DNA from: a virus
IMG/VR virus record: IMGVR_UViG_3300005844_000013
Strand: one strand, 5' to 3'
DNA: 46,324 bases
The position numbers and the translations under genes are program-made. The notes beneath the pieces are model-generated. The model did not search any database. It saw nothing but the letters and a program-made list of their open reading frames with translations, and was not told where the DNA came from. The stretch's first letter is position 1, and each line of letters opens with the position of its first letter. This document shows positions 1-17,087 of this stretch, in pieces.

Positions 1-100
1 CATCGAAATTGACGATCGCGCGAACGTCGTGATCGCCGCGCACGTGAGTGGATTTCGCCGCCCGCTCGGGCTCACCGTGAAGGGCGCGCGGGAGATCGCC
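1..100. repeat. Terminal direct repeat, left copy (identical to 46225..46324)
   Basis: Nt 1-100 (catcgaaattgacgatcgcg...gggagatcgcc) are letter-for-letter identical to the last 100 nt of the window. This fits an end-overlapped circular assembly or a short terminal redundancy. Confidence 0.97.
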
Positions 101-133
101 GCGATTGCGGGATGGCGTGAAGTCGAGCGCTAG
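2..133 (+). CDS. 3' part of a junction-spanning 69-codon hypothetical gene (5' part at 46148..46324; nt 2-100 duplicate 46226..46324)
   Basis: The frame entering at nt 2 (IEIDDRANVVIAAHVSGFRRPLGLTVKGAREIAAIAGWREVER) continues the frame opened by GTG 46148. It stops at TAG 131-133. Confidence 0.55.
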   Translation: MEIDDRANVVIAAHVSGFRRPLGLTVKGAREIAAIAGWREVER

Positions 134-375
134 CCGACGATCGCCCACCCGACGATACTTACGTCGAGGGTCTGGATGGTCAGCAGCCCGAGAATGTTTG
201 AATTGATGACGAATGACACTCCGGGGACGATCGTCCCGACAGTGAGCCGCGCGCCAGGCGTTCCGAGTGGCGTTTGCGGGGTGATGATGACCACCATTCC
301 GGCCATCGCTGCGGTGGTCTGAACCGTCGCTGTTCCGAACGAGAGCGTTGCCGTTCCTGCCGCCGTGATTTGCAT
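130..375 (-). CDS. Hypothetical protein, last gene of the tail-fibre cassette (Gly/Thr/Val-rich, beta-type composition)
   Basis: 81-aa ORF in the track. ATG 375 lies 1 nt after the stop of 377..580. Its stop (130-132) overlaps the stop of the convergent + strand gene (131-133). Confidence 0.55.
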   Translation of the reverse strand: MQITAAGTATLSFGTATVQTTAAMAGMVVIITPQTPLGTPGARLTVGTIVPGVSFVINSNILGLLTIQTLDVSIVGWAIVG

Positions 376-376
376 G

Positions 377-580
377 TCAGGTCAGCCATCCAAGGCAGAG
401 CGCCAACCCCGGAAGCCGATCACCGTAACGGTCCTTCCGCCACGGATTGAGCAGGACTGCGCGACCCCGCCATGAACGGCCCTCGATCGTTTGTCCGCCG
501 CATTCATCGACGAACGGCGCACCGCCGCTTTGCTTCGTTGTCGTAATCACGAGCCTTCCGAAGATCCATGCCTTACTCAT
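377..580 (-). CDS. Hypothetical protein (tail-fibre cassette)
   Basis: 67-aa ORF. ATG 580 is preceded by GAGGAG 8 nt upstream, and that SD overlaps the fibre gene stop (TGAGGAGAGAAGGCGATG). Confidence 0.55.
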   Translation of the reverse strand: MSKAWIFGRLVITTTKQSGGAPFVDECGGQTIEGRSWRGRAVLLNPWRKDRYGDRLPGLALCLGWLT

Positions 581-592
581 CGCCTTCTCTCC

Positions 593-1591
593 TCAGTTCG
601 TCGCCGTGACGATCCACTTCGACAGGCCCCCATCGTAGATGAAACTCGCCGACGATGTACCCGCCCGCAGAACGATGTCCGCGCCGGTCAAGGTCTGAAT
701 CTGATTCGCGGCCGTCGACGTGAGCAGATTTTTGAGCGTCATCTGCTGCGCGGTGGTGTTGAAAATCACGAGTACTTGACCGTCCGTTCCGGCCGCGAAT
801 CCGGAGACGCTGAAGGCGCCCGTCGGGCCGGTGATCCGCACGAATCCTGCGTCCGCAATCGCCAAATCGTTGTTCGCCCCATTCGAGAGCGTCAAAGGCT
901 TGTTCGGGAAGACCGTCGATTTGAAGACCGTCACCTTCCCGGCCTGCGTGAGGGAAAAAATCGTCGACGGACCTGTACCCTCCTCGATGGTCAAGAGGCC
1001 CGTCGTCGCGTCGAGCGTGATATTGACGGCCAGATTGTTCGCCGAGCCGTTCCCGCCGATACGCACGCGCGTAGCCGTCGATGCCCCGCCGAAGATTTGC
1101 TGCCAGATCGTTGCGCCAGGAGGCGCGACACCGATGCCGACGCGGCCGGAGGTCTGCAGCGTGTCCGTCGTCGGTCCAACAAGTGCCGGATTGGTTTGTA
1201 CGACGAACTTGGTGCCGGTGCCGGTCTGCGACGCAATCGCCGTCGCGTTCCCAACCGACGTGATCGGCCCGGTCAGGTTCGCGTTGACCGTCGCGGTACC
1301 GGTGGTGTTACCTGTCCCGCCGCGCGCTACAGGAAGCGTCCCGGAAGTGATCGCCGCGGCATCCAGCGTGCCTCCGTCGGCGGCGTCCTGGTGGTCGTGC
1401 TGCGCGTTGGTAAAGTCGGCGATGGCCGGCGTGCCGAGCGTCGGAGCGGTCCCAAAAACCAGCGCCCCGGAGCCCGTCTCGTCGCTGACGAACGAGCGAA
1501 GTTGATCGGAGGTCAGAACCTCGTCAACGTCGTCGAGATCGTCCGCTTTGCGCCAGCGCCACGGCCAGAAACGTTTGCCGTAGACGGCCAC
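593..1591 (-). CDS. Tail fibre protein
   Basis: 332 aa with a GTG start 3 nt after the upstream stop. Gly/Thr/Ala/Asn-rich repetitive beta sequence. Contains LPVARGGTGNTTGTA, a motif common in phage fibre shafts, and a distinct C-terminal domain. Confidence 0.75.
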   Translation of the reverse strand: MAVYGKRFWPWRWRKADDLDDVDEVLTSDQLRSFVSDETGSGALVFGTAPTLGTPAIADFTNAQHDHQDAADGGTLDAAAITSGTLPVARGGTGNTTGTATVNANLTGPITSVGNATAIASQTGTGTKFVVQTNPALVGPTTDTLQTSGRVGIGVAPPGATIWQQIFGGASTATRVRIGGNGSANNLAVNITLDATTGLLTIEEGTGPSTIFSLTQAGKVTVFKSTVFPNKPLTLSNGANNDLAIADAGFVRITGPTGAFSVSGFAAGTDGQVLVIFNTTAQQMTLKNLLTSTAANQIQTLTGADIVLRAGTSSASFIYDGGLSKWIVTATN

Positions 1592-1594
1592 AGG

Positions 1595-1882
1595 CTACCA
1601 GCGGCGCGGATAATCGGTCGGGACGGGTGGAGAGCTCACGCCGACCGGCTCAGGAACCGGCGGCTGGATGCGGTTCAGCGCGTTGTCGATCGCCGCGATT
1701 TCCTGATCCGCCGCCCGACCGCGCATCTGCGCTTCTTCCCGGCACTTCATCAGCGTCTCGCGCATGGCGTCGAGATCACGGTGCGCGCGAGCCCAAACCG
1801 GCAGCGATTCGGCTGCTTTCGCGGTCCCGACTGAACCGTGGCCGACGAGTCCACCTTGCGCCGCCTGCTGGTATTCGCTCAT
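1595..1882 (-). CDS. Hypothetical protein, first gene of the tail-fibre cassette
   Basis: 95-aa ORF with AGGAGG 7 nt upstream of ATG 1882. Helical, charged composition. Confidence 0.6.
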   Translation of the reverse strand: MSEYQQAAQGGLVGHGSVGTAKAAESLPVWARAHRDLDAMRETLMKCREEAQMRGRAADQEIAAIDNALNRIQPPVPEPVGVSSPPVPTDYPRRW

Positions 1883-2389
1883 GGGATTTCCTCCTGTTCT
1901 GTATGCCCCGCATCCTACGCGCTCCCTTCACTCCCGCGCAACCGCCGAATTTACGCTCCGCTTTCCGCAGGCACTCGGTTGCCGAAATCGACAAGAACTT
2001 ACCCGATTAGAAATTAGCCGAATCGGCCACCGAGACGTGAAATGTCTGAATTTCGTGCGTGGACGGAGATGACGTATGACCCTCCACCTCAACGCTCGCG
2101 CCTGAGGGGTCTGGGCATAGGGCCATGGGCCACGGTCCCCGCCCTACCACCCACCCTCTGCCGCCCACCCTCGCCCGTGGTGGAGGGGTGGGTAGGTGGA
2201 ATGGGGTTGCCCACGCGCGGTAGCCGATCGTGCCTCACGCTGGCTCGTACGCAGCCGCGCGCTACCTCTCGCCCGCGTCAAACCTCAATCCGGTGGGGCA
2301 AGGGCTTGGGGGCTCGACGGCACAGCAGGCGGCTCGGTGCCGGCTAAAGGCGGCAGCAAGTGGGGTCTGCTGCCACGGCGCCTCCGTCC

Positions 2390-2752
2390 CTATTCGGTGA
2401 CGTGTCCCATAATACACGAAATGTTAAATTGGCCGGTTCGCGTAAGTGCTGATGCTGCCGGGGTTACGCGAATCTCAGAATATTCGGCCAGATTATGAGG
2501 GAGACTTACGCCCTTTTCGGGGCCGGAGTTCAGCGATTGACCCGCTTGCTCGGTGGGCGGGTTGGCACGGAACAGCTCGAACTTTGGGTATAACTTCCCG
2601 CAACCCTGCTGTTCCTTCCACGCCTCATCCAACGTCCGGCTGAAGATCGCATCGAAGCATCCGCCGCAGATCGTTCCGCGTTTCGTCCACCGCAACTGAC
2701 AGCCGCACTTGACTCCAAAGACTCGCCACCACAACTGCCAGAACATTCTCAT
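2390..2752 (-). CDS. Cys-rich hypothetical protein (CGC...CGGC zinc-ribbon-like N-terminus)
   Basis: 120-aa ORF with AAGGA abutting ATG 2752. The N-terminal ~75 codons have GC-rich third positions. The last ~45 codons are AT-rich and look non-coding, so the functional C-terminus is uncertain. Confidence 0.45.
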   Translation of the reverse strand: MRMFWQLWWRVFGVKCGCQLRWTKRGTICGGCFDAIFSRTLDEAWKEQQGCGKLYPKFELFRANPPTEQAGQSLNSGPEKGVSLPHNLAEYSEIRVTPAASALTRTGQFNISCIMGHVTE

Positions 2753-2764
2753 TCCTTCATCCTC

Positions 2765-3085
2765 TCACGATTTGGGGGGCCGATCACGTCGTTCGCTCAG
2801 GTAAATACTGACGGCACCACGGAGAATCACAATCGCAGCCAAGATGACGCCCCATGCGATCAGTTCACTCTCGCTCATCTTCGTTCGCTCCTTCACGATT
2901 TGCGGGACAGGGAGGGAGAAGGGTGCGATCGTGTCGTTTTCGCGTCCCCTTCCTTGGGCTGAGATTACCTCAGCGATTCCGTTCATCACCGCGCGAATCT
3001 GTTCGGAGTTTAGTGTCGAAGTGAGTTGTTCGACGTCCACCTTCACGCCGGCGAAAACTTCGATTACTTCGCCCACCTTTGCCAT
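2765..3085 (-). CDS. Hypothetical protein with a C-terminal transmembrane helix
   Basis: 106-aa ORF with AAAGGA abutting ATG 3085. Hydrophobic segment LIAWGVILAAIVILRGAVSIYL near the C-terminus. Confidence 0.55.
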   Translation of the reverse strand: MAKVGEVIEVFAGVKVDVEQLTSTLNSEQIRAVMNGIAEVISAQGRGRENDTIAPFSLPVPQIVKERTKMSESELIAWGVILAAIVILRGAVSIYLSERRDRPPKS

Positions 3086-3423
3086 TCCTTTCGTGTCTCT
3101 ACCTGCATGCGAAGATCGTCACGTTTCGTTGCTGCGCTGCTCGGTTGGTTGCTGGTCGGTGCGCTCGCGTTTGCGGTGGTGCGGATGTCCAGTCCGCGAC
3201 CGTCACACTGAGGCTTGTCGGCGACAGCGTTCGCACTTGCAAGTGAGAATGTGTTTATCGACCACTCGGCATCACCGTCCTTTCGTCACCCGTCCGGTGC
3301 TTCGTCTCATGAAGGCCACCGAACGTGTCAGCGCTGGTTTGACGTGCTTTCGAGGAGGAGGGGAATCGATCTCGGTCTCTGATGGCGGGCGCGCGAGAGC
3401 TTCCCTCCGAATTCGTGTTCTTG

Positions 3424-3621
3424 TCAAGAACTTTCTTGCTTGAATCGTTGGCATCGGCACGCTTTTGTAACCGCATCGCTCAGCCCGTGGAGGCATGTGC
3501 GCGCTGATGTTCCTACCTGCTCGTGTTCGCTCCTGTCGTGCCCGCAGATGCATCGCTTGCGTGCCTTCGCCTGGCGTTCCTTGATGCGCAGCTTTCGATT
3601 GAGCGCACCGAGAGATGGCAT
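3424..3621 (-). CDS. Small zinc-binding-type protein (CxCGHD...H...C...CxC motif), apparent paralogue of 4408..4569
   Basis: 65-aa ORF. Motif KRCICGHDRSEHE...C...CRCQRF. ATG 3621 lies 6 nt after the stop of 3628..3762. Confidence 0.55.
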   Translation of the reverse strand: MPSLGALNRKLRIKERQAKARKRCICGHDRSEHEQVGTSARTCLHGLSDAVTKACRCQRFKQESS

Positions 3622-3627
3622 GGTGCG

Positions 3628-3762
3628 TCAATGCGCGCACAGGAGTTCCACGCGGTTGGCCAGCCATTTCTCGCGCTCGTGACGCGGCACATGCGGCAAC
3701 GACCAACCGACGACGCAGCCTTTGTTGCAACGGGCAACGAGAATCGGCGCGTCACTCATCAT
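3628..3762 (-). CDS. Small hypothetical protein, 44 aa (MMSDAPILVARCNKGCVVGWSLPHVPRHEREKWLANRVELLCAH)
   Basis: Hand-translated; below the 60-aa track cut-off. It fills the gap between two same-strand genes and has protein-like composition with Cys/His pairs. Confidence 0.45.
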   Translation of the reverse strand: MMSDAPILVARCNKGCVVGWSLPHVPRHEREKWLANRVELLCAH

Positions 3763-3809
3763 CGTCACTCACCTACGGCGCTCATGCGTGCCCTTTCGGG
3801 TAGAGTCGG

Positions 3810-4022
3810 TCAATCCGCATGGTGGTCACGTGCGCGCTCGGCCGCTCGCACCATTTCCCGTAGATCACTCATTGAGATTACCCACGTGCCCTCGCCGTCG
3901 TGCTGAAACGCTACTCCGTCCGTGATCTCGCCACAGGCCGAAACGCCTGGATTGAATTGCAACCCTCTCCCGTCACCCACAACCTCGATTTCGTACCATC
4001 CTGCGTATTTGGTCGTCTTCAT
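3810..4022 (-). CDS. Hypothetical protein
   Basis: 70-aa ORF. ATG 4022 overlaps the stop of 4019..4396 (ATGA). Balanced composition. Confidence 0.6.
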   Translation of the reverse strand: MKTTKYAGWYEIEVVGDGRGLQFNPGVSACGEITDGVAFQHDGEGTWVISMSDLREMVRAAERARDHHAD

Positions 4023-4396
4023 CGCATCACAACCTCGACGGCTCCTTGCGCTTCCGTAGCCAGGCGGCGCGGGTTCATTTCACGTGCATTTGCGTGGTCA
4101 GATCCATTCATCAAATCGAAGGTTCCGGCCTGTTTGCGTGCGTACTTCAGGATCGTCGCGAGACGATGCGGCCCCGCAATATCGAAATACTCATCACCGT
4201 ACCGCGTGAACACATGGCAACCGATTCGTCCGCCACGAACGAATCTCGCAATCCACGGCTCACCCTCCGGCCATGCGGTCACCAACATGCGGTGCAGTTC
4301 GTAGCACGCCCCGTTGGTGAACCGCTCGCGCATCCATCGCGGCTCAACCTCGCGGAGGATTTGGATGAACTGCGCGATGTCGCGACGCTTGGCCAT
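4019..4396 (-). CDS. Hypothetical protein (125 aa from MAKRRDIAQF...)
   Basis: Track ORF 4019..4522 trimmed to the internal ATG 4396. The upstream 42 codons are Arg-rich shadow sequence and are occupied by gene 4408..4569. Confidence 0.6.
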   Translation of the reverse strand: MAKRRDIAQFIQILREVEPRWMRERFTNGACYELHRMLVTAWPEGEPWIARFVRGGRIGCHVFTRYGDEYFDIAGPHRLATILKYARKQAGTFDLMNGSDHANAREMNPRRLATEAQGAVEVVMR

Positions 4397-4407
4397 ATCA
4401 GTGGTGC

Positions 4408-4569
4408 TCAGGTCGGTGTCGGCGTTGGTGTCGCTATCTCGAATCCGGCGCACTTGCAGCCCTCGCCGTACATGCAACCGCCGTAGCCGGGGCGCGCGTG
4501 GACGTACATGTCGTGGCCGCACTTACAGGCGATCCAATCGGCCGAATCCGGTTCGCCGTCGTACTCCAT
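4408..4569 (-). CDS. Small zinc-binding-type protein, 53 aa (CxCGHD...H...C...CxC motif), apparent paralogue of 3424..3621
   Basis: Hand-translated: MEYDGEPDSADWIACKCGHDMYVHARPGYGGCMYGEGCKCAGFEIATPTPTPT. ATG 4569 directly abuts the stop of 4570..4803. Below the track cut-off. Confidence 0.55.
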   Translation of the reverse strand: MEYDGEPDSADWIACKCGHDMYVHARPGYGGCMYGEGCKCAGFEIATPTPTPT

Positions 4570-4803
4570 CTACTTCTTCCCCGGCTTCTCGGCCGGCGCC
4601 TTCGCTGCTTTCGGCGGTGCGCTGAGCCGCACCTTCAGCTTGCCGACTTCGGTCAGCAGTTGACCGACGGTCAGTGCTTCCAGTGCGTCCTTCGCTTCGA
4701 CCGCGGCCACGTGCATCGTGGTCAGCATCTTCTCGGTCGTGTCGATCTTGCCGGGGCTGAGGAACTGTTTCGCGAGCAGGTTGATTAGGTTCGGGGACGC
4801 CAT
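4570..4803 (-). CDS. Hypothetical protein (helical, Lys/Ala/Pro-rich tail)
   Basis: 77-aa ORF with clean, non-Arg-biased composition. Confidence 0.65.
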   Translation of the reverse strand: MASPNLINLLAKQFLSPGKIDTTEKMLTTMHVAAVEAKDALEALTVGQLLTEVGKLKVRLSAPPKAAKAPAEKPGKK

Positions 4804-4820
4804 TTCGTTTTCTCCTTCGT

Positions 4821-4970
4821 TCAGCCTTCAAGATTGCGTTTCATCGCTTCGAGTTCGGCGGCGGCCCGTTCGAATTTCGCCTGAGCCTTCGCCTTCTCGC
4901 GCAGCTTGCCAATGCACGATCCGACAGCGGTAAGGCCGAAGCGCTTGACGAGCTTCTGAACTTCAGGCAT
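4821..4970 (-). CDS. Small coiled-coil hypothetical protein (49 aa from MPEVQKLVKRF...)
   Basis: Track ORF 4821..5117 trimmed to ATG 4970, because the upstream part overlaps 5011..5694 and looks like shadow sequence. An earlier TTG start cannot be excluded. Confidence 0.5.
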   Translation of the reverse strand: MPEVQKLVKRFGLTAVGSCIGKLREKAKAQAKFERAAAELEAMKRNLEG

Positions 4971-5010
4971 TGCCGCTTCGCGCGCGGCGCGGTAGCCATA
5001 CAAATCCTCC

Positions 5011-5694
5011 TTACGCTGCTTTTGTGAGAACGATTTCGCCGATGATCTCGCGGTGGAGGCACCCGAACTTCTCGCCGTCCGACACCACATCGCCATAGAG
5101 AGCCACAACCCACACACGCTCGCCTTGCCACTTCTCGGGCTGCATCGTGGCGTGCAGCGTTCCTTTGTGGCACAGGCTCAGGGGGCCTGCGGTCTTCTGG
5201 ATGAGTCCCGGCGCGGCCACTTCTGTAGCACGGCCGCCGTTTGCGGGCTTGCCGAGCGTGTTGGATCGCCAGAACGCCAACACCGTCGCCTCGCGTTCCG
5301 CATTGGCGAGACGGCTCCGGATCGGCTCCGGCCATGATTCGCGCGACGCGAGGTACAACGAGCGCCAATAGCCGTCGCCGGAGCCGTAGCCGTAGCCGTA
5401 GCCGTCGCCGTAGCCGTCGCCGTAGCCGTAGCCGTAGCCGGAGCCGGAGCCGTCGCCGTAGCCGTAGCCGTAGCCGTCGCCGTAGCCGGAGCCGGAGCCG
5501 TAGCCGGAGCCGGAGCCGGAGCCGGAGCCGTCGCCGTAGCCGTAGCCGGAGCCGTCGCCGGAGCCGTAGCCGTAGCCGGAGCCGGAGCCGTCGCCGTAGC
5601 CGGAGCCGTCGCCGTAGCCGGAGCCGGAGCCGTCGCCGTAGCCGACTTGGGCATTCGCCCAAGTCGGCAGTTCACCACGGATTACCCGTTCCAC
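5011..5694 (-). CDS. Gly-X dipeptide-repeat protein: short N-terminus, 46 x (Gly-Tyr/Ser/Asp), C-terminal ~115-aa Cys/His-containing domain
   Basis: Track ORF 5011..5856 trimmed to GTG 5694, which has GGGAGG 8 nt upstream. This is the only frame that continues from the repeat into a complex, protein-like C-terminal domain (..LCHKGTLHATMQPEKWQGERVWVVALYGDVV..FGCLHREIIGEI). Confidence 0.65.
   Translation of the reverse strand: MERVIRGELPTWANAQVGYGDGSGSGYGDGSGYGDGSGSGYGYGSGDGSGYGYGDGSGSGSGSGYGSGSGYGDGYGYGYGDGSGSGYGYGYGDGYGDGYGYGYGSGDGYWRSLYLASRESWPEPIRSRLANAEREATVLAFWRSNTLGKPANGGRATEVAAPGLIQKTAGPLSLCHKGTLHATMQPEKWQGERVWVVALYGDVVSDGEKFGCLHREIIGEIVLTKAA
5368..5643. repeat. Hexanucleotide array, 46 units of GCCGNN (+ strand; NN = TA, TC or GA)
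   Basis: Read directly: gccgta/gccgtc/gccgga units with no interruption. Several frames on both strands are open across it: GYGDGS, RLRLRR and ATATAP on the - strand, SRSRSR on the + strand. Confidence 0.95.
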
Positions 5695-5975
5695 GGCGCA
5701 GCCTCCCACTTCGTAACGGCTTCCGGCGAAACTTCGAGAACGGCGGTGATGTCGCGTAGTTCGATGTCGGCAGGCGGACCAATCTTGCAGTTGCTGTTCG
5801 GTCCGACCGACGCGAGCCCCATGAAGCCGCGCAGATCCGCCGACCAGTAGACGCACAGCCGCGCGCGTTTCAGTTTGATGGTTGCGCCAGACGTGTCCTC
5901 CGCGAAACCGAAGAACACTCCTTTGTGGGCGGTGGTGACGATGACGGGACGCTCGGAAGATTTCTTGGTGACCAT
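5682..5975 (-). CDS. Hypothetical protein
   Basis: 97-aa ORF with AGGAGGAAAGA directly before ATG 5975. Its 3' end overlaps GTG 5694 of the repeat protein by 13 nt. Confidence 0.65.
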   Translation of the reverse strand: MVTKKSSERPVIVTTAHKGVFFGFAEDTSGATIKLKRARLCVYWSADLRGFMGLASVGPNSNCKIGPPADIELRDITAVLEVSPEAVTKWEAAPWNG

Positions 5976-6115
5976 TCTTTCCTCCTATTCGCAGGGGCTT
6001 CCATTCGCACCCTCGATGTTAGACGGCGGCGGCACGATGCTTCCGGCGCTGCCCCTGCGATGGAGTTCCGCTTAGGTTGCGGTTACCGCCACCGCCCAAC
6101 ATCCAAGGAACGAAT

Positions 6116-6271
6116 TCACCGCTTCACTTCGATGTAGAACGATTGCTCCAACCGCACTACGATTTCGGCGTTCAGGCTGCGATGGTTCTTCCTCGCCTCC
6201 TTCGCCAATTTGTCATGCAGTTCGCGCGACCACCTGAGCCGCCCCTCAATTCGTTCATCTCGCTTCGGCAT
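6116..6271 (-). CDS. Arc/MetJ-type ribbon-helix-helix DNA-binding protein, 51 aa
   Basis: Hand-translated: MPKRDERIEGRLRWSRELHDKLAKEARKNHRSLNAEIVVRLEQSFYIEVKR. It has a basic N-terminal strand and the HRSLNAEIVxRLEQS signature typical of Arc-family repressors. Below the track cut-off. Confidence 0.75.
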   Translation of the reverse strand: MPKRDERIEGRLRWSRELHDKLAKEARKNHRSLNAEIVVRLEQSFYIEVKR

Positions 6272-6323
6272 GGGTAGCAATATGGGGCCACCGCTCGGCT
6301 ACGTCAAGCAAAATCTTTCAACG

Positions 6324-6479
6324 TCACGGAACGAATACGACAGGCACCGACGGCCCCTCTTCCGCAGCGTCCGACAGCGCCTCGAACACGCGCCGGATTT
6401 CGGTGAGGGTGATGCTCGTGTGTTCGTGCTCGGTGCCCTTCAAGACGCTCTCGATTGCGCGCATGCTGACTTCGATCAT
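6324..6479 (-). CDS. Small acidic hypothetical protein, 51 aa
   Basis: Hand-translated: MIEVSMRAIESVLKGTEHEHTSITLTEIRRVFEALSDAAEEGPSVPVVFVP. GGAGGAATCC sits directly before ATG 6479. 9 acidic versus 4 basic residues. Below the track cut-off. Confidence 0.6.
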   Translation of the reverse strand: MIEVSMRAIESVLKGTEHEHTSITLTEIRRVFEALSDAAEEGPSVPVVFVP

Positions 6480-6558
6480 GGATTCCTCCGAATCGGAAAA
6501 TGGGCCGGGAAAAAGTCGTGACTTCGAGATTCAATCCCTTCCACCAAAGAGCGACCAT

Positions 6559-6590
6559 CCCATCGGCATCTTATTCTCCGGCCCGATGGG
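6559..6590 (-). promoter_or_regulatory. Candidate operator/promoter: perfect 8-bp inverted repeat CCCATCGG-N16-CCGATGGG enclosing a TAAGAT -10-like hexamer (- strand)
   Basis: Seen ~85 nt upstream of the acidic-protein/Arc pair. No good -35 was found, so the promoter assignment is tentative. Confidence 0.3.
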
Positions 6591-6873
6591 GCACACGTAC
6601 AGCAGTTGCCGCCTTATACGCGCGTTCTTTTTGAAGCGTGCCTTTTTGGACCGGGGCGCTGGTCGCTAGAAGAGGGAATGCAACCCTCAGCACGGGATCT
6701 ACCACCCGCTCGGAGCCCGGGAAGACCGGCGAGGAGGCCGGAGGAAGGCGCTTTCGTTGGCGACTGCTCAGTATCGCTTGGGGTTTCGGCGCAAGAGATG
6801 AAAACCCGCCGCGCGGGGACGTGTGTTATCCTTTTTCCGCGATTCGTTCTTTGACTGGGGCGATCGAGACCTA

Positions 6874-6913
6874 GGCCGGGTGAGTCTGTTCCGCTCCCCG
6901 GCCTTACTTTTTT
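6874..6913 (+). terminator. Intrinsic-terminator-like hairpin on the + strand (antisense to the flanking operon)
   Basis: GGCCGGG, a 16-nt loop, CCCGGCC, then TTACTTTTTT. No + strand protein gene ends here. Confidence 0.4.
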
Positions 6914-6981
6914 CCCTCCCGCGCTGACGATCATTCAGCCGTGAAGAGTGGCGCACCACCGTTCACTCCGTCAACTGTGCG

Positions 6982-7021
6982 TTTTGCCACACGTTGGGGC
7001 ATTTCTCCACACTTTGGGGAT
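6982..7021. repeat. Two tandem 20-bp direct repeats (ttttgccacacgttggggca / tttctccacactttggggat)
   Basis: 15 of 20 positions are identical, with 20-bp periodicity. Located immediately downstream of the Dam gene stop. Confidence 0.6.
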
Positions 7022-7031
7022 TCTTGGGACA

Positions 7032-7433
7032 CTACGCGCCGAAGAGCAAGAGAACGCAGTCAACCGGCGAGGTGTGTTTGTTCCCGACGAACTTCGGCTT
7101 TCCGAGGAAGAATTCAACTCGGGCGCCTAGGCTCAGCGCGCGGTGAAACCATCGGGCATTCGTTCGCGCCGGTACGAGCAAGCAAGCGAAATCAGCGGTC
7201 TCCGCAAGCTCCACGAACGGACGGATGTTCGACCATGGTGGATTGCAGAACACGCGCTCGCCCTTCCACGGCAGCGGCCTCGCGAACGTCGATGCGTGCT
7301 TCAGCAGACGGTTGTGTCGCTCGGCTGCGCCGTCCATCGTGAAGTTGAATCGGGCGTGCAGGCGATCGAACAACTCGCGGGGCGTCTGGTGAGTCTGCCG
7401 ACGCGCACCCTGATACCAATTGACGTAGCTCAT
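7032..7433 (-). CDS. dam: Phage-type DNA N6-adenine methyltransferase (Dam family)
   Basis: 133 aa. Motifs TPRELFDRLHARFNFTMDGAA and catalytic NPPW (FCNPPWSN) in the order typical of the small phage Dam family. No restriction partner nearby. Confidence 0.85.
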   Translation of the reverse strand: MSYVNWYQGARRQTHQTPRELFDRLHARFNFTMDGAAERHNRLLKHASTFARPLPWKGERVFCNPPWSNIRPFVELAETADFACLLVPARTNARWFHRALSLGARVEFFLGKPKFVGNKHTSPVDCVLLLFGA

Positions 7434-7486
7434 TTTTCACGGGCCTGCCAGATCACCGGCGGGCTCTTTCCTTTTAAGAAGCGTGC

Positions 7487-7996
7487 TTAGAGCAGCGTCT
7501 CAGACTTCTCACCGATCAGGTCAGCGAGTCCCTTCACCACCGCATCCGGTGGATTGCTGACCTTCGTGAGCGTCACGTGGCCATCGTCGAACGTGTACCC
7601 GTTGCGATACCCCTCGGTGCCGCTCATGGCCTTCGTGGCGACGTGGTAGCGCACGCGATGCGGCAGCGAGGTTTGATGTGTATCCTCATCGATCGCCGTC
7701 ACGACGTAGAAAAAGGAGTAGGTGCAGCAGTCGCCGAAGCAATTTCCGTGGCCCGGCTGGCTCCCTTTGGTGGACACACCGCCAGGCTCAGGCTTTCCGC
7801 CAGCAGCCACTTCGGGATTGGAGATCCAAGCCGGATCACCGTTGAACCAACCGAACCCTGATCTTCCGGTAACGACGTCGCCGACCTTGAAGCGCGGACT
7901 CATTCGCTTGGCCCTCGCTTCACACTCTTCCGCTTCGGCCAGCGTCGGGTATTCGGTTTCGCATACACCGCACAGGTAGATCGTTTTGGTTTTCAT
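7487..7996 (-). CDS. Hypothetical protein (N-terminal CxxC, 169 aa from MKTKTIYLCGVCE...)
   Basis: Track ORF trimmed to ATG 7996, which is preceded by GAGGAGAAGACG. Confidence 0.6.
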   Translation of the reverse strand: MKTKTIYLCGVCETEYPTLAEAEECEARAKRMSPRFKVGDVVTGRSGFGWFNGDPAWISNPEVAAGGKPEPGGVSTKGSQPGHGNCFGDCCTYSFFYVVTAIDEDTHQTSLPHRVRYHVATKAMSGTEGYRNGYTFDDGHVTLTKVSNPPDAVVKGLADLIGEKSETLL

Positions 7997-8006
7997 CGTC
8001 TTCTCC

Positions 8007-8216
8007 TCACTTCCGCCCCGAATGCGGCGCCCGCTGGTCGATGTGGTGGCTCTCGCGCTGCACAGCTCGTAGGAGCCGCGCATTCTCAGCCTCCAGGACA
8101 GCCACGCGATTGGACAGGAGCAACAGGAGCCACAGGAAGGGCCGGCCGATCGGCGCGTCTACGGGCGGCTCTGCGCGTGGCGTAGCGATCGGGACGGCTT
8201 TTAGGGGAGGGTTCAT
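8007..8216 (-). CDS. Hypothetical protein with a hydrophobic/coiled-coil centre (69 aa from MNPPLKAV...)
   Basis: Track ORF 8007..8363 trimmed to ATG 8216, which overlaps the stop of 8213..8416 (ATGA). Confidence 0.5.
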   Translation of the reverse strand: MNPPLKAVPIATPRAEPPVDAPIGRPFLWLLLLLSNRVAVLEAENARLLRAVQRESHHIDQRAPHSGRK

Positions 8217-8416
8217 TCGCCGATCGCCTTTCTGTGTGCATCGAGGGCGTTGCGCGCGACGGTCCTGCACCAGTTGTACCCGTTGCTGTCCGCGATCTCC
8301 GTCAAGGCAGCGACCAGCGCGGCGTTGCGGCCTTTCAGAATTTCGATAGTTACAGCCGCCCACTCTGCATACTCCTCGGCGCTCAGCGGCTTCGCGGTTT
8401 CGTCGTCAGGCATCAC
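8213..8416 (-). CDS. Hypothetical protein
   Basis: 67-aa ORF with ATGA overlaps at both ends. Helical, acidic composition. Confidence 0.65.
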   Translation of the reverse strand: MMPDDETAKPLSAEEYAEWAAVTIEILKGRNAALVAALTEIADSNGYNWCRTVARNALDAHRKAIGE

Positions 8417-8724
8417 TCGCCTCCCTTCGCGGCGTTGCGCTTGCCAGCGATGAGCACGCAGCCGCAGGATGGAGCGAGCACTTCGCCACCACCATCACGG
8501 AGCGCCGTTCCGTGCTCGCAACGCGGCAGCGGATGATGCGCATCAACGTAGACGGTAGCGGCCTTCAATCGCTCAACAGGATCAGTAAGGATGCGGCGGA
8601 ATTCAATGACCGCAGCAGGCACGCTTGGATGCGCACCTCGCATCTTGCGCGGATTCTTAGGGAGGAAGGCGCGGTCGATCAACTCCAGCAATTCGCGCGG
8701 CATCAAAACAGGAACTTCGATCAT
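8413..8724 (-). CDS. Hypothetical protein
   Basis: 103-aa ORF with ATGA overlaps at both ends. Confidence 0.65.
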   Translation of the reverse strand: MIEVPVLMPRELLELIDRAFLPKNPRKMRGAHPSVPAAVIEFRRILTDPVERLKAATVYVDAHHPLPRCEHGTALRDGGGEVLAPSCGCVLIAGKRNAAKGGE

Positions 8725-9059
8725 CGCCCATCCTCCCTTTCCGCCTGCGCCACAAACGGGTGGTAGGCGAACACGCGACCGAGGCGGCTATGAATCGGAT
8801 CGCGCGCGGGCAGATTGCAGACGTCACGGACCCATCCCTGCATGCGCTGGGCGCAGAGCGAAGGTTCCAACCGCTCCGCCTGCGCGTCGGGCCCGAGAAA
8901 CTGCTGCACGTGCTCGGCGTGCTCTTTGCGAGCGCCGGTTGCGGTGATCGAATACGACAGCTTCCATCCGCATGAACAGGTTGCGCGGTAGAGCATTTCG
9001 CGACGCGCCTTGTCGACGCGTTGCGACTTCAGCGAGAGGGTGTGGGGCTCGGTGGTCAT
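8721..9059 (-). CDS. Hypothetical protein with a CSCGW...H..H motif
   Basis: 112-aa ORF with ATGA overlaps at both ends. Confidence 0.65.
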   Translation of the reverse strand: MTTEPHTLSLKSQRVDKARREMLYRATCSCGWKLSYSITATGARKEHAEHVQQFLGPDAQAERLEPSLCAQRMQGWVRDVCNLPARDPIHSRLGRVFAYHPFVAQAEREDGR

Positions 9060-9196
9060 GGGCGTCTCCGATTGAAGAATCTGAACATGGCGCGGGCGAG
9101 TGGTTCATGCGGCTCACGTCGCGCCAAGAGAGACGTTGCTAACGCGCTTCCGATATAACCCATTACTGCCGCCACGAGGAAATGCAACGCGATCAT
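9056..9196 (-). CDS. Small membrane protein, 46 aa (MIALHFLVAAVMGYIGSALATSLLARREPHEPLARAMFRFFNRRRP)
   Basis: Hand-translated; below the track cut-off. ATGA overlaps with both neighbours. One clear transmembrane helix. Confidence 0.5.
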   Translation of the reverse strand: MIALHFLVAAVMGYIGSALATSLLARREPHEPLARAMFRFFNRRRP

Positions 9197-9558
9197 TCCG
9201 GATCTCCTTTGCCGAACAGCGCGTCAATTCGTGCGGTAGTCTCGTCATCCTCGTTCCAGCAGGCCGCGCACATGCTTCCGCGCGCATCGAGCCGCGGGCG
9301 GTCGCTCCCTTCGTGGTACGGGCAGAAGCCCATCGCCACGGTTGCCCGCGCGATGGCCTGCTCGCCGATCGCTGACCACGCCGCGATTCCGTACCGCACG
9401 GCCAATCTGTCGAGCAGCATCGCTGTTTCCTTCGCGATGATCGCGGATGGCGCGTTGAGTGCCATCAGCTTGCCGAGACGCTGGTAGCTCAGTTGGACAC
9501 GAGCCTTGCTCATCTCGTCGAATGACATCGGGGCGTCGGTGTTCACGTCGTTGCTCAT
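9193..9558 (-). CDS. Hypothetical protein
   Basis: 121-aa ORF with ATGA overlaps at both ends. Confidence 0.65.
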   Translation of the reverse strand: MSNDVNTDAPMSFDEMSKARVQLSYQRLGKLMALNAPSAIIAKETAMLLDRLAVRYGIAAWSAIGEQAIARATVAMGFCPYHEGSDRPRLDARGSMCAACWNEDDETTARIDALFGKGDPE

Positions 9559-9713
9559 CGCTCCTCCTCAAAATCCTTGTACGTCCCGGCGCACACGCCA
9601 GGATCGGTACGGACGCTCGTCTCGTCGAAGTGGATGGCGAAGTACCGCTCGCCGTTCTCGCTGTCGGTCTGGATCGGAGTGGGCGACTGGCATACGGGGC
9701 AGGCGGCGGTCAT
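9555..9713 (-). CDS. Small zinc-ribbon-like protein, 52 aa (MTAACPVCQSPTPIQTDSENGERYFAIHFDETSVRTDPGVCAGTYKDFEEER)
   Basis: Hand-translated; below the track cut-off. ATGA overlaps with both neighbours. Confidence 0.55.
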   Translation of the reverse strand: MTAACPVCQSPTPIQTDSENGERYFAIHFDETSVRTDPGVCAGTYKDFEEER

Positions 9714-9889
9714 GAGCGCGCCGCCAGGAAAGCCACAGCGTACGCTTCGAGCAGCGCGTCATTTTTGACGATCACCGAATCCAGACCGAGCCATCCTTCA
9801 ATCAGCGATTCGAGTGTGGCATTCGGCCACAGGGCGGCGTGCTTGGTACCGAGGCGGGTAGCGAGGGCGGTTGCTGTCGTGCTGTTCAT
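9710..9889 (-). CDS. First gene of the leftward early operon; small protein, possibly a Cro-like regulator (59 aa from MNSTTATALATRLG...)
   Basis: Track ORF 9710..9946 trimmed to ATG 9889. That ATG sits exactly 7 nt downstream of a near-consensus -10, so the mRNA would be leaderless. The helix-turn-helix reading is weak. Confidence 0.6.
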   Translation of the reverse strand: MNSTTATALATRLGTKHAALWPNATLESLIEGWLGLDSVIVKNDALLEAYAVAFLAARS

Positions 9890-9896
9890 ACGGAGC

Positions 9897-9925
9897 AACA
9901 TACATTCGGGGGTACGAATAGTCAA
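9897..9925 (-). promoter_or_regulatory. Leftward sigma70-type promoter: TTGACT-17 nt-TATGTT
   Basis: -35 at 9925..9920 and -10 at 9902..9897 on the - strand. ATG 9889 begins 7 nt after the -10. The dyad ATTCG-N6-CGAAT (9904..9919) fills the spacer. Confidence 0.55.
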
Positions 9926-9939
9926 GATGTATTTTGGGG

Positions 9940-9968
9940 TTGCCAAAAGAAACTTTCGGACTTACGAT
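9940..9968 (+). promoter_or_regulatory. Rightward sigma70-type promoter: TTGCCA-17 nt-TACGAT
   Basis: -35 at 9940..9945 and -10 at 9963..9968. ATG 9976 begins 7 nt after the -10. The imperfect dyad CCAAAAG-aaa-CTTTCGG (9943..9959) lies in the spacer. Confidence 0.55.
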
Positions 9969-9975
9969 ATGCGGC

Positions 9976-10161
9976 ATGGAACGAACGCAGAACCTCGGAC
10001 GCCCGCGAATCAGAGGTAAGAACGGCGCCAAGTTGCGGAAACGGAACATCAGCATGTTCGACTACCAGTGGAGCAAGCTGGGCAAGATCGCGCCCGACGG
10101 AGACCGCAGCGCCCTGCTCCGCAAGATGGTCGACGAACTCGGAAGCGAGGCGAAGCCGTGA
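9976..10161 (+). CDS. Ribbon-helix-helix (CopG/Arc-like) transcriptional regulator, 61 aa
   Basis: Track ORF trimmed to ATG 9976 (MERTQNLGRPRIRGKNGAKLRKRNISMFDYQWSKLGKIAPDGDRSALLRKMVDELGSEAKP). Basic N-terminus, a beta strand (RNISMF) and two helices. Confidence 0.7.
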   Translation: MERTQNLGRPRIRGKNGAKLRKRNISMFDYQWSKLGKIAPDGDRSALLRKMVDELGSEAKP

Positions 10162-10277
10162 ACGAAATCCTCATTCCCTGCGGCTGCGTGACAGTGGTTG
10201 TGATCGTTGCGGGCGTCATCGGATGGGCTGGCCTTTGCTTCGCGATCGTGGAGCGATGGCGGCGGCGAAGGAAGTAA
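10158..10277 (+). CDS. Small membrane peptide, 39 aa (VNEILIPCGCVTVVVIVAGVIGWAGLCFAIVERWRRRRK)
   Basis: GTG 10158 overlaps the RHH gene stop (GTGA). One transmembrane helix followed by a poly-Arg/Lys tail. This is the tail of track ORF 10068..10277. Confidence 0.45.
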   Translation: MNEILIPCGCVTVVVIVAGVIGWAGLCFAIVERWRRRRK

Positions 10278-10345
10278 CGAACCGAGCAAAAAGCAGAAGA
10301 GCGCGGCAGTAACCGCGCCCTTCGAACGCAAAGGAGGAATTGAGG

Positions 10346-10537
10346 ATGTCCAGTATTGAACCACAAGTCAGATTCCGTGTCGAGATCACCGTGCAGTCGT
10401 TCGATGGTCAGACGCCCAACGATGAGCGCAGAATCATCTACCTTCAGGAAGTCGAGACCTACCTCCCCGTCGCCCAGGTGATCGCCGCCGTCAACAGTTT
10501 CGAACTCGCCGAGACGACGGCGCCGGAGGTGGGATGA
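10346..10537 (+). CDS. Hypothetical protein (63 aa)
   Basis: AAGGAGG 8 nt upstream of ATG 10346. The stop overlaps the ATG of the next gene (ATGA). Confidence 0.65.
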   Translation: MSSIEPQVRFRVEITVQSFDGQTPNDERRIIYLQEVETYLPVAQVIAAVNSFELAETTAPEVG

Positions 10538-11463
10538 GATCCGAGGCGCTCGCAACTCTCGGCCACGCGCACACGATCGCAGCGGAGTACGACGGCAACC
10601 TCACCGTTCGCCAGCTCTACTACCAGCTCGTCGCGCAGGGGTTCATTCCTAACAGCCAGAAGTCCTATCAGCGAATCGTTTCAATCTTGACGGACGCGCG
10701 GCTCAGCGGAGACTTCCCGTTCGAGTGGCTGATCGATCGAACGCGCGAGGCGCGCCCCGGAAGGTTCGTAGGTAATCAGGATGACGTTGACGATGCGCTG
10801 TCCAGCGCGGCCGATGATCTACGACGGGCGCCGGAGGCGTGGCTGCATCGTGCTCGATGGTACGGACAGCCGACGCACGTTTCCGTGTGGGTCGAAAAAG
10901 AAGCCCTCATGGGCGTGTTCGAGGCGCCATGCGAACGTCTCGGCGTCGCGTGGTTTGTCCTGCGCGGCTACTCCTCGCTGTCGGCGCTGTCGCAGTGGGT
11001 CGACAACACGGCTGAGGCGTGCAGTGAGGGCGACGTCAGGGAAGCGGTCGTCCTCTACTTCGGCGACCACGATCCGGACGGGTGGGAGATCCCGCGCAGC
11101 GCTGAGCGAAACGTCGAGGCCATCGCCCGCGTGCGCGGCATCGATCTGCCGCCCGTGACGTTCGAGCGCGTCGCGCTGCTCGGCGATCAGATCCGGCGAT
11201 TCAAGCCGCCACCGTTCCCGGCGAAGGAGACCAGCTCCCGTTTCGAGTCGTACGTGCGCGAGCACGGGATGACGAACGCATGGGAGCTCGACGCACTCCG
11301 CCCCGACGTGCTTCAAAAGCTGATCGTTGACGGCGTCGAGGCACACTTCGACGAATCAATCCACGAGGAAAATAGCGAGACCATCGCAGAGGCACGAACG
11401 GCGATGCGGGCAAGGATGCAAAAGCCTGCATGGATCAAGGGCGTGCTCGGAGCCGACCAATGA
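10534..11463 (+). CDS. Spo11/topoisomerase-VI-subunit-A-like protein (winged-helix 5Y-CAP plus Toprim)
   Basis: 309 aa. Motifs LTVRQLYYQLV (candidate catalytic Tyr), VWVEKEALMGVF (Toprim Glu) and LYFGDHDPDGWEI (Toprim DxD), in Topo VI-A order. Confidence 0.6.
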   Translation: MRSEALATLGHAHTIAAEYDGNLTVRQLYYQLVAQGFIPNSQKSYQRIVSILTDARLSGDFPFEWLIDRTREARPGRFVGNQDDVDDALSSAADDLRRAPEAWLHRARWYGQPTHVSVWVEKEALMGVFEAPCERLGVAWFVLRGYSSLSALSQWVDNTAEACSEGDVREAVVLYFGDHDPDGWEIPRSAERNVEAIARVRGIDLPPVTFERVALLGDQIRRFKPPPFPAKETSSRFESYVREHGMTNAWELDALRPDVLQKLIVDGVEAHFDESIHEENSETIAEARTAMRARMQKPAWIKGVLGADQ

Positions 11464-12383
11464 CCGCCGCCCTCCTACCCGGCGTCCACCCCAACATCCC
11501 CGCCGCGGAGTACCACGCCGACCCATGCTCCGAACCTTCGTTGACCAGCTCGGGGATCAAAACGCTCCTGAGTGAGTCGCCCGCTGCGTTTGCGTCGCGC
11601 CATCCGAAACTCACGCAATGGCCTGAACTGCTTGACGAGTCCTCGAAGGCGAAAGATTTCGGCACCATCGTCCATTCGCTCGTGCTCGGAGTCGGCGCAG
11701 GATTCCACGCGTGCGACCCCAAGGACTGCCCCGCGCGCACGAAGAAGGGCGACCCGTACAAAAGCTGGGCGTACGGAGCGGCCGAATGGAAGGAAGAGCA
11801 GGAAGAGAAGGGCATCATCATCATGAGCCGCAAGGAAGGCGCGCGCGTCCAGTCCGCGGCCGAGTCCATGATCCGCTTGCTGCGCGACGAATACGGCGAC
11901 TGGCCAATCGGCGACTCGGAAGTCACGCTCGTTTGGCAGCGCGATACCTCGCTCGGACCTATCTGGTGCCGGGCACGCGCTGACCATCTGGCGCTGCGGC
12001 ACATGGTGGTGCTGGACCCGAAGTCCACCGGCCGGGGCATCAGCGACCGCATGCTTCAGAAGATGGCCGCGGATGACGGCTGGCACATTCAGGCGGCGTG
12101 GTACCTGGAAGCGGTGGAAGCGACGCATCCGGACGTTGACCTCGCCGGCCGCCTCACCTTCCGCTTTCCCGTCGTCGAGATGGCCCCGCCGTACCAGGCG
12201 CGCTTCGTTGATCTGCCAGAAGCGTGGATTCACATCGCGCGGCAGCGGAACGACCGCGCGGCGGAGCTGTTCGCGAAGTGCCTTGCGGCGAACGACTGGC
12301 CCGCGTACGCGCCGGTCTGCTCTCCGGAGCCGCCGACGTGGATGCTCACCGAATTTGAAGCTGAGGAGATGCGCGATGTGTAG
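11460..12383 (+). CDS. PD-(D/E)XK exonuclease, RecE/exonuclease VIII-like
   Basis: 307 aa from ATG 11460 (ATGA overlap). Motifs AEYHADPCSEPSLTSSGIKTLL, RADHL...VVLDPKS and QAAWY, in the order typical of the RecE-type PDDEXK domain. Confidence 0.8.
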   Translation: MTAALLPGVHPNIPAAEYHADPCSEPSLTSSGIKTLLSESPAAFASRHPKLTQWPELLDESSKAKDFGTIVHSLVLGVGAGFHACDPKDCPARTKKGDPYKSWAYGAAEWKEEQEEKGIIIMSRKEGARVQSAAESMIRLLRDEYGDWPIGDSEVTLVWQRDTSLGPIWCRARADHLALRHMVVLDPKSTGRGISDRMLQKMAADDGWHIQAAWYLEAVEATHPDVDLAGRLTFRFPVVEMAPPYQARFVDLPEAWIHIARQRNDRAAELFAKCLAANDWPAYAPVCSPEPPTWMLTEFEAEEMRDV

Positions 12384-12636
12384 CGACGATTTCAGCGGGA
12401 CAACAGACGAGTACAGCGCCCGAATGGGAGCCGAAGCCGCTGCAAAGGCGAGCAGTAAATTCAACGACGAAATGTGTGAGCACATGCGCGCCCTCGTTCA
12501 GTACTGCGAGGCCGTCGGCGTCATCTTCGGTGGATGTGGTGATTGCGGTTCGCCATGGCTGACGTGCTCCCATTGCGAGCAGACGGTGGATGACGCTGCC
12601 GAAGTATTCGCGCGCTCCGAGAAGGCCGCGTCATGA
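12376..12636 (+). CDS. Cys-rich hypothetical protein (GGCGDCGSPWLTCSHCEQ zinc-ribbon-like)
   Basis: 86 aa from ATG 12376, the tail of track ORF 12073..12636. Overlaps both neighbours. Confidence 0.6.
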   Translation: MCSDDFSGTTDEYSARMGAEAAAKASSKFNDEMCEHMRALVQYCEAVGVIFGGCGDCGSPWLTCSHCEQTVDDAAEVFARSEKAAS

Positions 12637-13655
12637 AGCTCCCCGATCGCACATTCACCACCGTCCACGCCGAACCAGGACCGCGCCCGCTGTGGGTTGG
12701 ACTATTCGGCCCGAGCGGTGGCGGCAAGACGTTCTCCGCGCTTCTCCTGGCGAAGGGCATTCAGTCCGTCGTCGGCGGGCGAATCAACTTCATCGACACG
12801 GAGTCCGGCCGCGGGCTCCACTACGCGGATCTCTTCGATTACGACTACACGCCGCTTCCGCCGCCTCACGGCTCGCTCGATTACCTCGCCGCCATCACAC
12901 ATGCCGTGAAGGGCAAAGGCGCGCGTATCGTCATCGTGGACAGCCTGAGCCATGAGCACGACGGCGAAGGCGGGATGATCGAATTCCAAGAGCGCGAGAT
13001 GGAGCGTCTGTCAGGTGGCGATTGGCAGAAGGCCGAGCGCGTCAAGATGCTCGCGTGGACGAAGCCGAAGGCCGCGCGCAAGCAACTCCTGCGCGGCATG
13101 CTGGCATTCGGGACGGACGCCGTTTTCATCCTTTGCTTCCGCGCCGATGAGCAATCCAAGCCGGTGAAGAAGGGCGACAAAACGGAAGTCATTCAGATGG
13201 GCTTCATGCCGATCGCCGGCAAACCGTTCGTGTACGAGGCTACAGTGTGCGCTCTGTTGATGCCAGGCGCGAACGGGGTGCCGACGTGGAATCCGGAGAA
13301 CGTCGGCGAGAAGCTGATGCGCAAGCTCCCCGAGCAGTTCAAAAAGATGTTTGCCGCAACAGAAGGGAAGCCGCTCAGCGAGGAGCATGGTCGCCTGATG
13401 GCCGAATGGGCGAAGGGCGGGGTGGCCGGCAAACCGCCGCGCCAGTCCCCTCCCCCGCCAACGGACAAGACGCTCGCCCAACGTGTCGACGCCGCAATCG
13501 AGAAGCTCGCGGAGAAGAACACGCACGCCGGCGTCAACGGCGTGTGGAAGGCGACCGAGGATCTGCGCGCCGAACTTGCCGACGCCCAAGAGGGCGCGCT
13601 GCTCGACAAACTGGTTGGGGCCAGAGACGATCGTCTTCGCGAGATTTCCAAATGA
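12633..13655 (+). CDS. Sak4-like / AAA_24-type RecA-fold ATPase (recombination mediator)
   Basis: 340 aa. Walker A GPSGGGKT and Walker B RIVIVDSLSHEHDG. Sits next to the exonuclease, as in phage recombination modules. Confidence 0.75.
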   Translation: MKLPDRTFTTVHAEPGPRPLWVGLFGPSGGGKTFSALLLAKGIQSVVGGRINFIDTESGRGLHYADLFDYDYTPLPPPHGSLDYLAAITHAVKGKGARIVIVDSLSHEHDGEGGMIEFQEREMERLSGGDWQKAERVKMLAWTKPKAARKQLLRGMLAFGTDAVFILCFRADEQSKPVKKGDKTEVIQMGFMPIAGKPFVYEATVCALLMPGANGVPTWNPENVGEKLMRKLPEQFKKMFAATEGKPLSEEHGRLMAEWAKGGVAGKPPRQSPPPPTDKTLAQRVDAAIEKLAEKNTHAGVNGVWKATEDLRAELADAQEGALLDKLVGARDDRLREISK

Positions 13656-13786
13656 CGAACAAACAGAAGAAGGCGCTTCTCAACCGCGTGTTCGATCCGA
13701 AGACGACGGCGAAGGAACGGCGGCGCGTGCTCCGATCCCTCCTCGGGCTCAATGGCAAGCGGGTCGCGCGGGAGTTGGCAAAATGA
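13652..13786 (+). CDS. Small basic hypothetical protein, 44 aa (MTNKQKKALLNRVFDPKTTAKERRRVLRSLLGLNGKRVARELAK)
   Basis: ATGA overlaps with both neighbours. Below the track cut-off as an independent ORF. Confidence 0.5.
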   Translation: MTNKQKKALLNRVFDPKTTAKERRRVLRSLLGLNGKRVARELAK

Positions 13787-15008: not shown

Positions 15009-15036
15009 CCGCGCTGGACGCGCAGATGAGGATGGG

Positions 15037-16138: not shown

Positions 16139-16148
16139 GGAGGAACGA

Positions 16149-16561: not shown

Positions 16562-16594
16562 AATAGAAAGGGCGCCGACTTTCGCCGACGCCCT
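16560..16594 (-). terminator. Intrinsic terminator of the leftward late block
   Basis: On the - strand: AGGGCGUCGGC-GAAA-GUCGGCGCCCU. That is an 11-bp stem including 2 G-U pairs, with a GNRA tetraloop, followed by TTCTATTT. On the + strand the wobble pairs become mismatches. Confidence 0.6.
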
Positions 16595-17072: not shown

Positions 17073-17087
17073 CGTTCATTCTCCTTT

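Follow-up and report, generated by a model that had tools for sequence, protein, structure and literature searches.

An Arc-family regulator gene and its orphan acidic neighbor in the early arm of a complete phage genome

Two short genes, each of 51 codons, lie one behind the other on the minus strand of a phage genome. Both are real genes; the second clearly codes for an Arc-family ribbon–helix–helix (RHH) protein, and the first, which codes for a small acidic protein, is best read as a fast-evolving orphan early gene. What, if anything, do the two have to do with each other? Judging from the sequences compared, the best explanation is that they are neighbors and not a functional pair. We hold it moderately probable that the acidic gene ends an upstream transcription unit and that arc opens a leaderless unit of its own, which runs on through two further genes (one for a DUF6948 protein and one for a repeat protein) and which the Arc-like protein, as an autoregulator, keeps in check.

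Taken alone, the finding matters little: it lengthens by one each the list of Arc-family regulators and that of small orphan genes in phages. It does carry a caution: a small acidic ORF beside a small DNA binder, with a dyad nearby, is not enough to call an acr–aca operon, and comparison with one relative was all that it took to move the promoter and dissolve the gene pair. The locus is best read as regulator biology of an ordinary kind, with a few unexplained additions, of which three are of note: three predicted promoters each set exactly 7 nt ahead of an ATG, a strand-specific RNA structure of 125 nt, and the pairing of DUF6948 with a repeat gene.

The Genome and Its Two Short Genes

The window (the whole stretch of DNA analyzed, 46,324 nucleotides) is a complete, circularly assembled phage genome of 46,224 bp, its first 100 nt being the same as its last 100 (1–100 and 46225–46324). 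It is rich in GC (58–66%), and both 51-codon genes belong to an arm of small minus-strand genes reaching from ~9.9 kb down to 0.1 kb. The proteins coded in the window include a Dam-type methyltransferase (by Pfam and PHROG), a protein matching a PHROG family annotated as DNA topoisomerase, a Holliday-junction resolvase, a PD-(D/E)XK nuclease, and a depolymerase domain. There are no tRNAs in the window, Rfam gave no match at its gathering threshold over the whole window or at E ≤ 1 on 5900–7100, and no DNA relative turned up among GenBank phages for 5000–9000, the sole region compared. The closest relatives are three metagenomic contigs of ~46.6 kb from soil or rhizosphere (L001–L003), and set against them the early arm consists, over its entire length, of blocks of 77–98% identity interspersed with unrelated DNA. 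Both 51-codon genes are present, and called as genes, in these three contigs.

The upstream gene (MIEVSMRAIESVLKGTEHEHTSITLTEIRRVFEALSDAAEEGPSVPVVFVP; 6324–6479, minus strand) had been predicted to carry a good Shine–Dalgarno sequence and to code for a net acidic protein, and it does both. GGAGGA stands at 6489–6484 on the minus strand, 4 nt ahead of the ATG, and the 51-aa product has 9 D/E vs. 4 K/R and a pI of 4.7. Its GC content by codon position (0.62/0.42/0.81) resembles that of known genes of the phage genome, a signature that the overlapping ORFs of 84 and 103 aa do not have.

How far does the acidic family reach? Across billions of sequences, it amounts to three protein clusters. A word-indexed search of 5.8 billion proteins returned only the protein itself and one other that is 88% identical (P0002) and is coded in L001–L003, an exhaustive HMMER/phmmer pass over 1.84 billion representatives added one further homolog (P0005; 61% identical, 51 aa), and scans of viral and metagenome contigs for further loci of the gene recovered only the known relative. 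The homologs are all exactly 51 aa long, and pairwise dN/dS is 0.31–0.45, even at dS ~1, which together argue for a protein that is real but loosely constrained.

Nor do the structural and family libraries say what it is like. Pfam, PHROG, and NCBIfam gave no match, PDB gave none by sequence or by profile search, and Foldseek found nothing at E ≤ 0.001 in PDB and BFVD; in these general libraries (Pfam, PHROGs, NCBIfam, PDB, and Foldseek on PDB/BFVD), no relationship to a known anti-defense protein appeared. AlphaFold2 (AF2), given the alignment of three sequences, predicts a strand–helix–helix–strand fold with a pLDDT of 79. The protein is not detectably a DNA binder, and its binding partner is probably a protein of the host or of the phage. 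As an observation on its own, the two helices of residues 8–40 resemble one unit of TPR_10/12-type repeats (ALAIxEKVLGxEHPxT), a likeness that probably reflects a helical-hairpin motif in common rather than homology; the remaining hits of the exhaustive search, all multi-repeat TPR-like proteins, were set aside on that judgment.

The downstream gene (6116–6271, minus strand) is the more familiar of the two. That its 51-aa product would be Arc-like was borne out wherever we looked: it matches Pfam Arc (PF03869) over residues 12–46 at E 7.4e-12, with 45.4 bits against a cut-off of 20.4 bits; it matches PHROG Arc-like families; and phmmer on PDB pairs its residues 6–47 with residues 6–47 of P22 Arc (1myk; E 2.4e-5). 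The two proteins belong to the same family, are nearly alike in length (51 vs. 53 aa in P22), and are collinear over the N-terminal β-strand, helix A, the G/N-R-S turn, and helix B; they differ in the DNA-contacting residues of the strand, which are E9, R11, and R13 in the window vs. Q9, N11, and R13 in P22. The window protein is basic (pI 10.3), is 96% identical in the relative, and has a dN/dS of 0.13. An HMM built from its Arc relatives picks out a single Arc-family ORF in the window. A PDB entry named “Arc family DNA-binding protein” (9pio) proved to be only a ClpXP substrate and was put aside.

The Upstream Dyad

The original prediction had joined the two genes into an acr–aca counter-defense operon, in which the acidic protein inhibits a defense system and the RHH protein, in the manner of an Aca, represses a promoter 5′ of both and with it its own gene. 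There are things to be said for the idea. In an early accessory arm, the gene of a small DNA binder is directly preceded by that of a small acidic orphan, the Dam-type methyltransferase is coded in the same arm, relative L001 has a weak Acb2/Tad1-hairpin match elsewhere among its early genes, and a dN/dS of 0.3–0.45 fits a gene caught in an arms race. We nevertheless consider such an operon decidedly unlikely, and the case against it begins with the region where its promoter had been placed.

The dyad that had been noted there, CCCATCGG-N16-CCGATGGG around a TAAGAT hexamer, exists as described at 6559–6590. It is not conserved, and it does not stand out statistically: the window has 51 perfect 8-bp dyads with loops of 3–30 nt vs. 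39 ± 8 in random sequences (first-order Markov sequences modelled on the window, with an expectation of about 0.46 per 545 bp), which is no more than chance would give. The promoter scan found no sigma-70-like promoter at the dyad, the best −35 that can be assigned to TAAGAT by eye matches at two positions of six, and the RNA fold of 6640–6480 is unremarkable (z −0.9).

The dyad lies, moreover, within a lineage-specific stretch of 543 bp (6489–7031, minus strand) between dam and the acidic gene that contains no ORF with a coding signature. BLASTN of the window against the relatives gives a block of 92% identity over 5500–6488 that ends 9 nt 5′ of the acidic ATG, and in the alignment, identity begins at the Shine–Dalgarno sequence of the acidic gene (6488). 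In place of 6489–7031, L001–L003 have genes of 129, 145, and 64 aa, the last of which overlaps the acidic ATG as ATGA. Because the stretch has no counterpart in these closest relatives, the dyad cannot be a conserved control element of the gene pair, and the proposal that it is an operator-overlapped promoter is not supported. For an acr–aca operon, this means that a conserved upstream promoter or operator is missing.

Some smaller features of this region may be recorded here. The mosaic breakpoint falls exactly at the Shine–Dalgarno sequence of the acidic gene, at 6488 in the window and at 9992 in L001. Two perfect 8-bp inverted repeats within 6489–7031, each with a spacer of exactly 16 nt, lie at 6559–6590 and 6873–6904; a terminator-like hairpin with a T-run lies at 6817–6805; and a tandem pair of 20-mers (6979–7018) comes directly after dam.

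A Promoter-Like Site Between the Genes

If not at the dyad, where would the promoter be? The sole sigma-70-like site in 5600–7500, where 0.4 would be expected per 1.9 kb on both strands, is TTGACG-17-CATATT (6279–6307, minus strand), which lies within the 52 nt that separate the two genes, its −10 hexamer ending 7 nt before the arc ATG. It is on the coding strand and matches the consensus at 9 of 12 positions, the consensus being that of sigma-70, from which the host and its sigma factors may differ. An acr–aca operon would have its promoter ahead of both genes, and here, the best candidate separates them. This 52-nt stretch is nearly unchanged in L001–L003, where both hexamers are identical and one base of the spacer differs, a conservation that could just mirror the 92% overall identity in the one closely related lineage that carries arc.

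The position of this site is of more interest than its score. A promoter scan of 1–20000 gave four best sites, two of which form a divergent pair at 9.9 kb, and three of the four are followed, after exactly 7 nt, by the ATG of a coding ORF (at 6271, 9889, and 9976). The relatives have the same layout again, both at arc and at a divergent region of their own. There is no Shine–Dalgarno sequence ahead of the arc ATG, and this lack, together with the spacing at three sites and its repetition in relatives, suggests that leaderless early transcripts may be the rule in this phage group; a transcript of arc from 6279–6307 is predicted to be leaderless, its start site being itself a prediction. The divergent pair has some details of its own: its sites read TTGACT-17-TATGTT (minus) and TTGCCA-17-TACGAT (plus), the ATGs at 9889 and 9976 open ORFs of 59 and 61 aa, and the 61-aa product looks RHH-like by eye and matches no family.

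The scheme that we favor can be put together from these pieces. The acidic gene would close the 3′ end of an upstream early transcription unit. From the promoter at 6307→6279, transcription would begin at the A of the arc ATG or right beside it and so give a leaderless mRNA, which, we infer, would be translated as such and which would continue through a structured spacer into DUF6948 and the gene for the Gly/Tyr-repeat protein. A dimer or tetramer of the Arc-like protein would then bind its own promoter and limit both itself and the genes downstream. The model for this last step is P22, where Arc, the first gene of the Pant operon, represses Pant; by that analogy, autorepression is the most likely action of the window protein. 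The only operator candidate at the arc promoter, GTAGC-N19-GCTAC, is of the kind expected by chance. In the gap from the acidic gene to arc, no terminator was found, and read-through would put the two on one RNA. With no integrase among the ~40 window proteins scanned, an immunity role for the Arc-like protein is doubtful.

Would the protein have to work mainly on its own unit? It might instead be a trans-acting temporal regulator that shuts off other early promoters, of which the window offers at least two, predicted to be leaderless, at 9.9 kb, and it is common for members of the Arc family to have several operators, P22 Arc working on Pant and on Pmnt alike. We rate this as rather unlikely. 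Searches by k-mers and by alignments yielded no convincing motif common to the arc promoter region and either the 9.9-kb promoters or other intergenic regions.

The Two Genes in Relatives

The original prediction depended on the acidic ORF being conserved beside homologs of the RHH gene. The two are adjacent in two phage lineages, those of the window and of L001–L003, and there the linkage ends. The 61% identical homolog P0005 lies on a 52-kb contig (L012), where the next gene codes for a protein of 100 aa that is unrelated and matches nothing in Pfam and where the Arc-family HMM finds no Arc-family ORF within the 16.7 kb examined. The gene for that homolog has no Shine–Dalgarno sequence. Its ATG comes 8 nt after the end of a weak TTGCCT-17-TACACT; on the 5′ side of the gene, a terminator-like hairpin and a T-run can be seen by eye, and TTGACG-17-TACACT follows directly on its 3′ side. 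With hairpin, weak promoter, gene, and new promoter in that order, 9940–10200 of L012 has the look of a one-gene unit.

The view from the other gene is the same, so that the original prediction fails its own check from both sides. We compared 12 loci with Arc relatives 43–59% identical to the window protein (five viral contigs and seven bacterial genomes), and not one has the acidic gene. In eight of them, the Arc relative directly borders a divergent intergenic region, often with a second Arc-like gene facing it, and in 11, there is no co-directional small gene upstream; the exception, in L009, resembles an Xis-type HTH protein by eye. Recurrence of the regulator downstream of varied small genes was thus not seen across the 12 loci. 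In two viral loci (L007 and L008), the Arc relatives stand beside genes that read by eye as antirepressors, with Bro-N/Ant-type N termini, and in two bacterial loci (L049 and L050), the Arc relative is followed by what looks by eye like a PIN-type toxin gene. By eye again, L007 3570–4974 and L008 2982–4306 are immI-like layouts, in which divergent pairs of Arc-like genes come with antirepressor-like genes.

An acr is expected to vary beside a conserved aca, so the loss of linkage alone would not be fatal to an acr–aca operon, and a precedent exists for its RHH regulator in Aca14, the only RHH-type Aca described, the earlier Aca families being HTH regulators of a different fold (bioRxiv 10.64898/2026.07.27.740549). 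Like Aca14, the window protein is a small regulator of the RHH type, coded in an accessory region of a phage with a small orphan gene directly 5′. Unlike the Aca14 case, the window pair has no inverted repeat overlapping an upstream promoter, its predicted promoter comes after the putative effector and not before it, and the neighbor of its Arc-like gene matches no known Acr or, indeed, anything known. BLASTP of the Arc-like protein against Aca14 gave no alignment even at E ≤ 100, which leaves the window protein outside the one Aca family of its fold. The predicted layout, effector and then regulator behind a single upstream dyad-controlled promoter, is not that of a locus with a promoter-like site between the genes, with their linkage not conserved, and with 11 of 12 related arc loci lacking a small upstream gene on the same strand.

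A more novel outcome is also conceivable: the acidic protein could be a new counter-defense or host-takeover protein beside an Aca-like RHH protein that is unrelated to Aca14, or the leaderless unit of arc, RNA structure, DUF6948, and repeat gene could be a new kind of regulated effector module. We think this unlikely.

Could the acidic protein act on the Arc-like protein itself, as a partner or antagonist, perhaps as an RHH-binding anti-repressor? Their adjacency in two phage lineages and their opposite net charges (pI 4.7 vs. 10.3) would suit such a role, and the predicted strand–helix–helix start of the acidic protein is superficially RHH-like. The resemblance does not survive comparison of profiles (hhalign of the acidic protein against the Arc-family alignment gives a relationship probability of 0.4%), and on L012, as noted, the acidic gene manages without an Arc-family gene nearby. 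We see such a partnership as very unlikely.

A type II toxin–antitoxin pair, with the RHH protein as antitoxin, strikes us as extremely improbable. The Arc-like protein has its fold class in common with RHH antitoxins (FitA/VapB, ParD, and CopG type), it has sub-threshold, weak Pfam matches to FitA-like, HicB, and ParD-like families, and the two bacterial homologs followed by PIN-type genes are RHH+PIN pairs. Unlike those antitoxins, it is a bare 51-aa RHH with no C-terminal toxin-binding extension, and it has neither an adjacent toxin gene nor an overlapping partner: the gaps on its two sides are 52 and 140 nt, neither neighbor matches a toxin family in Pfam or PHROG, the acidic protein does not resemble known toxins, and DUF6948 is mostly found without an RHH gene.

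The Genes Downstream of arc

We return to the reading that we prefer, a unit that arc opens, and to what follows arc in it. The immI region of P22 is laid out as Pant–arc–ant, with a divergent mnt and the sar RNA, and an immI-like layout had been proposed for the window as well. It holds only weakly: a promoter-like site directly precedes arc, which would be the first gene behind it, genes on the same strand follow arc, and arc–ant layouts are found in L007 and L008, where the Arc relatives are more distant. What does not hold is the rest. In the window, arc is followed by DUF6948 and the Gly/Tyr-repeat gene, with no Ant, Bro-N, or KilAC match; no mnt-like gene lies in the divergent direction, where the plus-strand ORFs of the locus are without a coding signature; and the arc mRNA, unlike that of P22, is predicted to be leaderless.

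The DUF6948 gene (5682–5975, minus strand) has a strong Shine–Dalgarno sequence and codes for a 97-aa protein that matches Pfam PF22253 at E 1.6e-24. It is tightly constrained (dN/dS 0.04) and present in 31 viral contigs (loci L013–L043); the comparisons below are with the 30 others. A terminator-like site was looked for between arc and DUF6948 and none was found, and the two are probably cotranscribed. The genes 5′ of DUF6948 vary among the contigs, by eye an HTH protein in L014 and an RHH-like protein in L036, and Arc is there only in the close relative. In 30 other phages, DUF6948 has no Arc neighbor, so Arc is not an obligatory part of the module; arc looks like a lineage-specific addition ahead of a widespread DUF6948 module, which is consistent with, and not proof of, a local regulator. 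As to what the DUF6948 protein does, a PDB profile search and a literature search each returned nothing, and an AF2 model from the single sequence was unusable (pLDDT 37).

Between arc and DUF6948 lies a spacer of 140 nt, most of which (5989–6115, minus strand, that is, the sense strand) folds as a long RNA hairpin. Folded in the sense direction and compared with shuffles, it has an energy of −74.8 kcal/mol and a z of −5.3, none of 200 shuffles being as stable, whereas the antisense of the region reaches only a z of −1.8. The hairpin region in the relative has a z of −4.3, and three substitutions there in the 3′ arm (TCT to CTC) keep the pairing by exchange of G-U and G-C. A perfect 10-nt complement joins the hairpin loop (6051–6060) to 5989–5998, just 5′ of the DUF6948 Shine–Dalgarno sequence, and this second pairing might give rise to a pseudoknot or to an alternative fold. 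Rfam has no match for the hairpin, which is also not a general feature of the DUF6948 module when sought upstream of the gene in the 30 other phages.

The last gene of the proposed unit (5011–5709, minus strand) codes for a protein with Gly/Tyr/Asp/Ser repeats, and its start overlaps the end of DUF6948, at the conserved KWExxPW with which the DUF6948 protein closes. A repeat ORF overlaps the DUF6948 end in ~20 of the 30 other viral contigs as well, the pair of DUF6948 and a Gly/Tyr-repeat gene recurring in this way across soil phage contigs.
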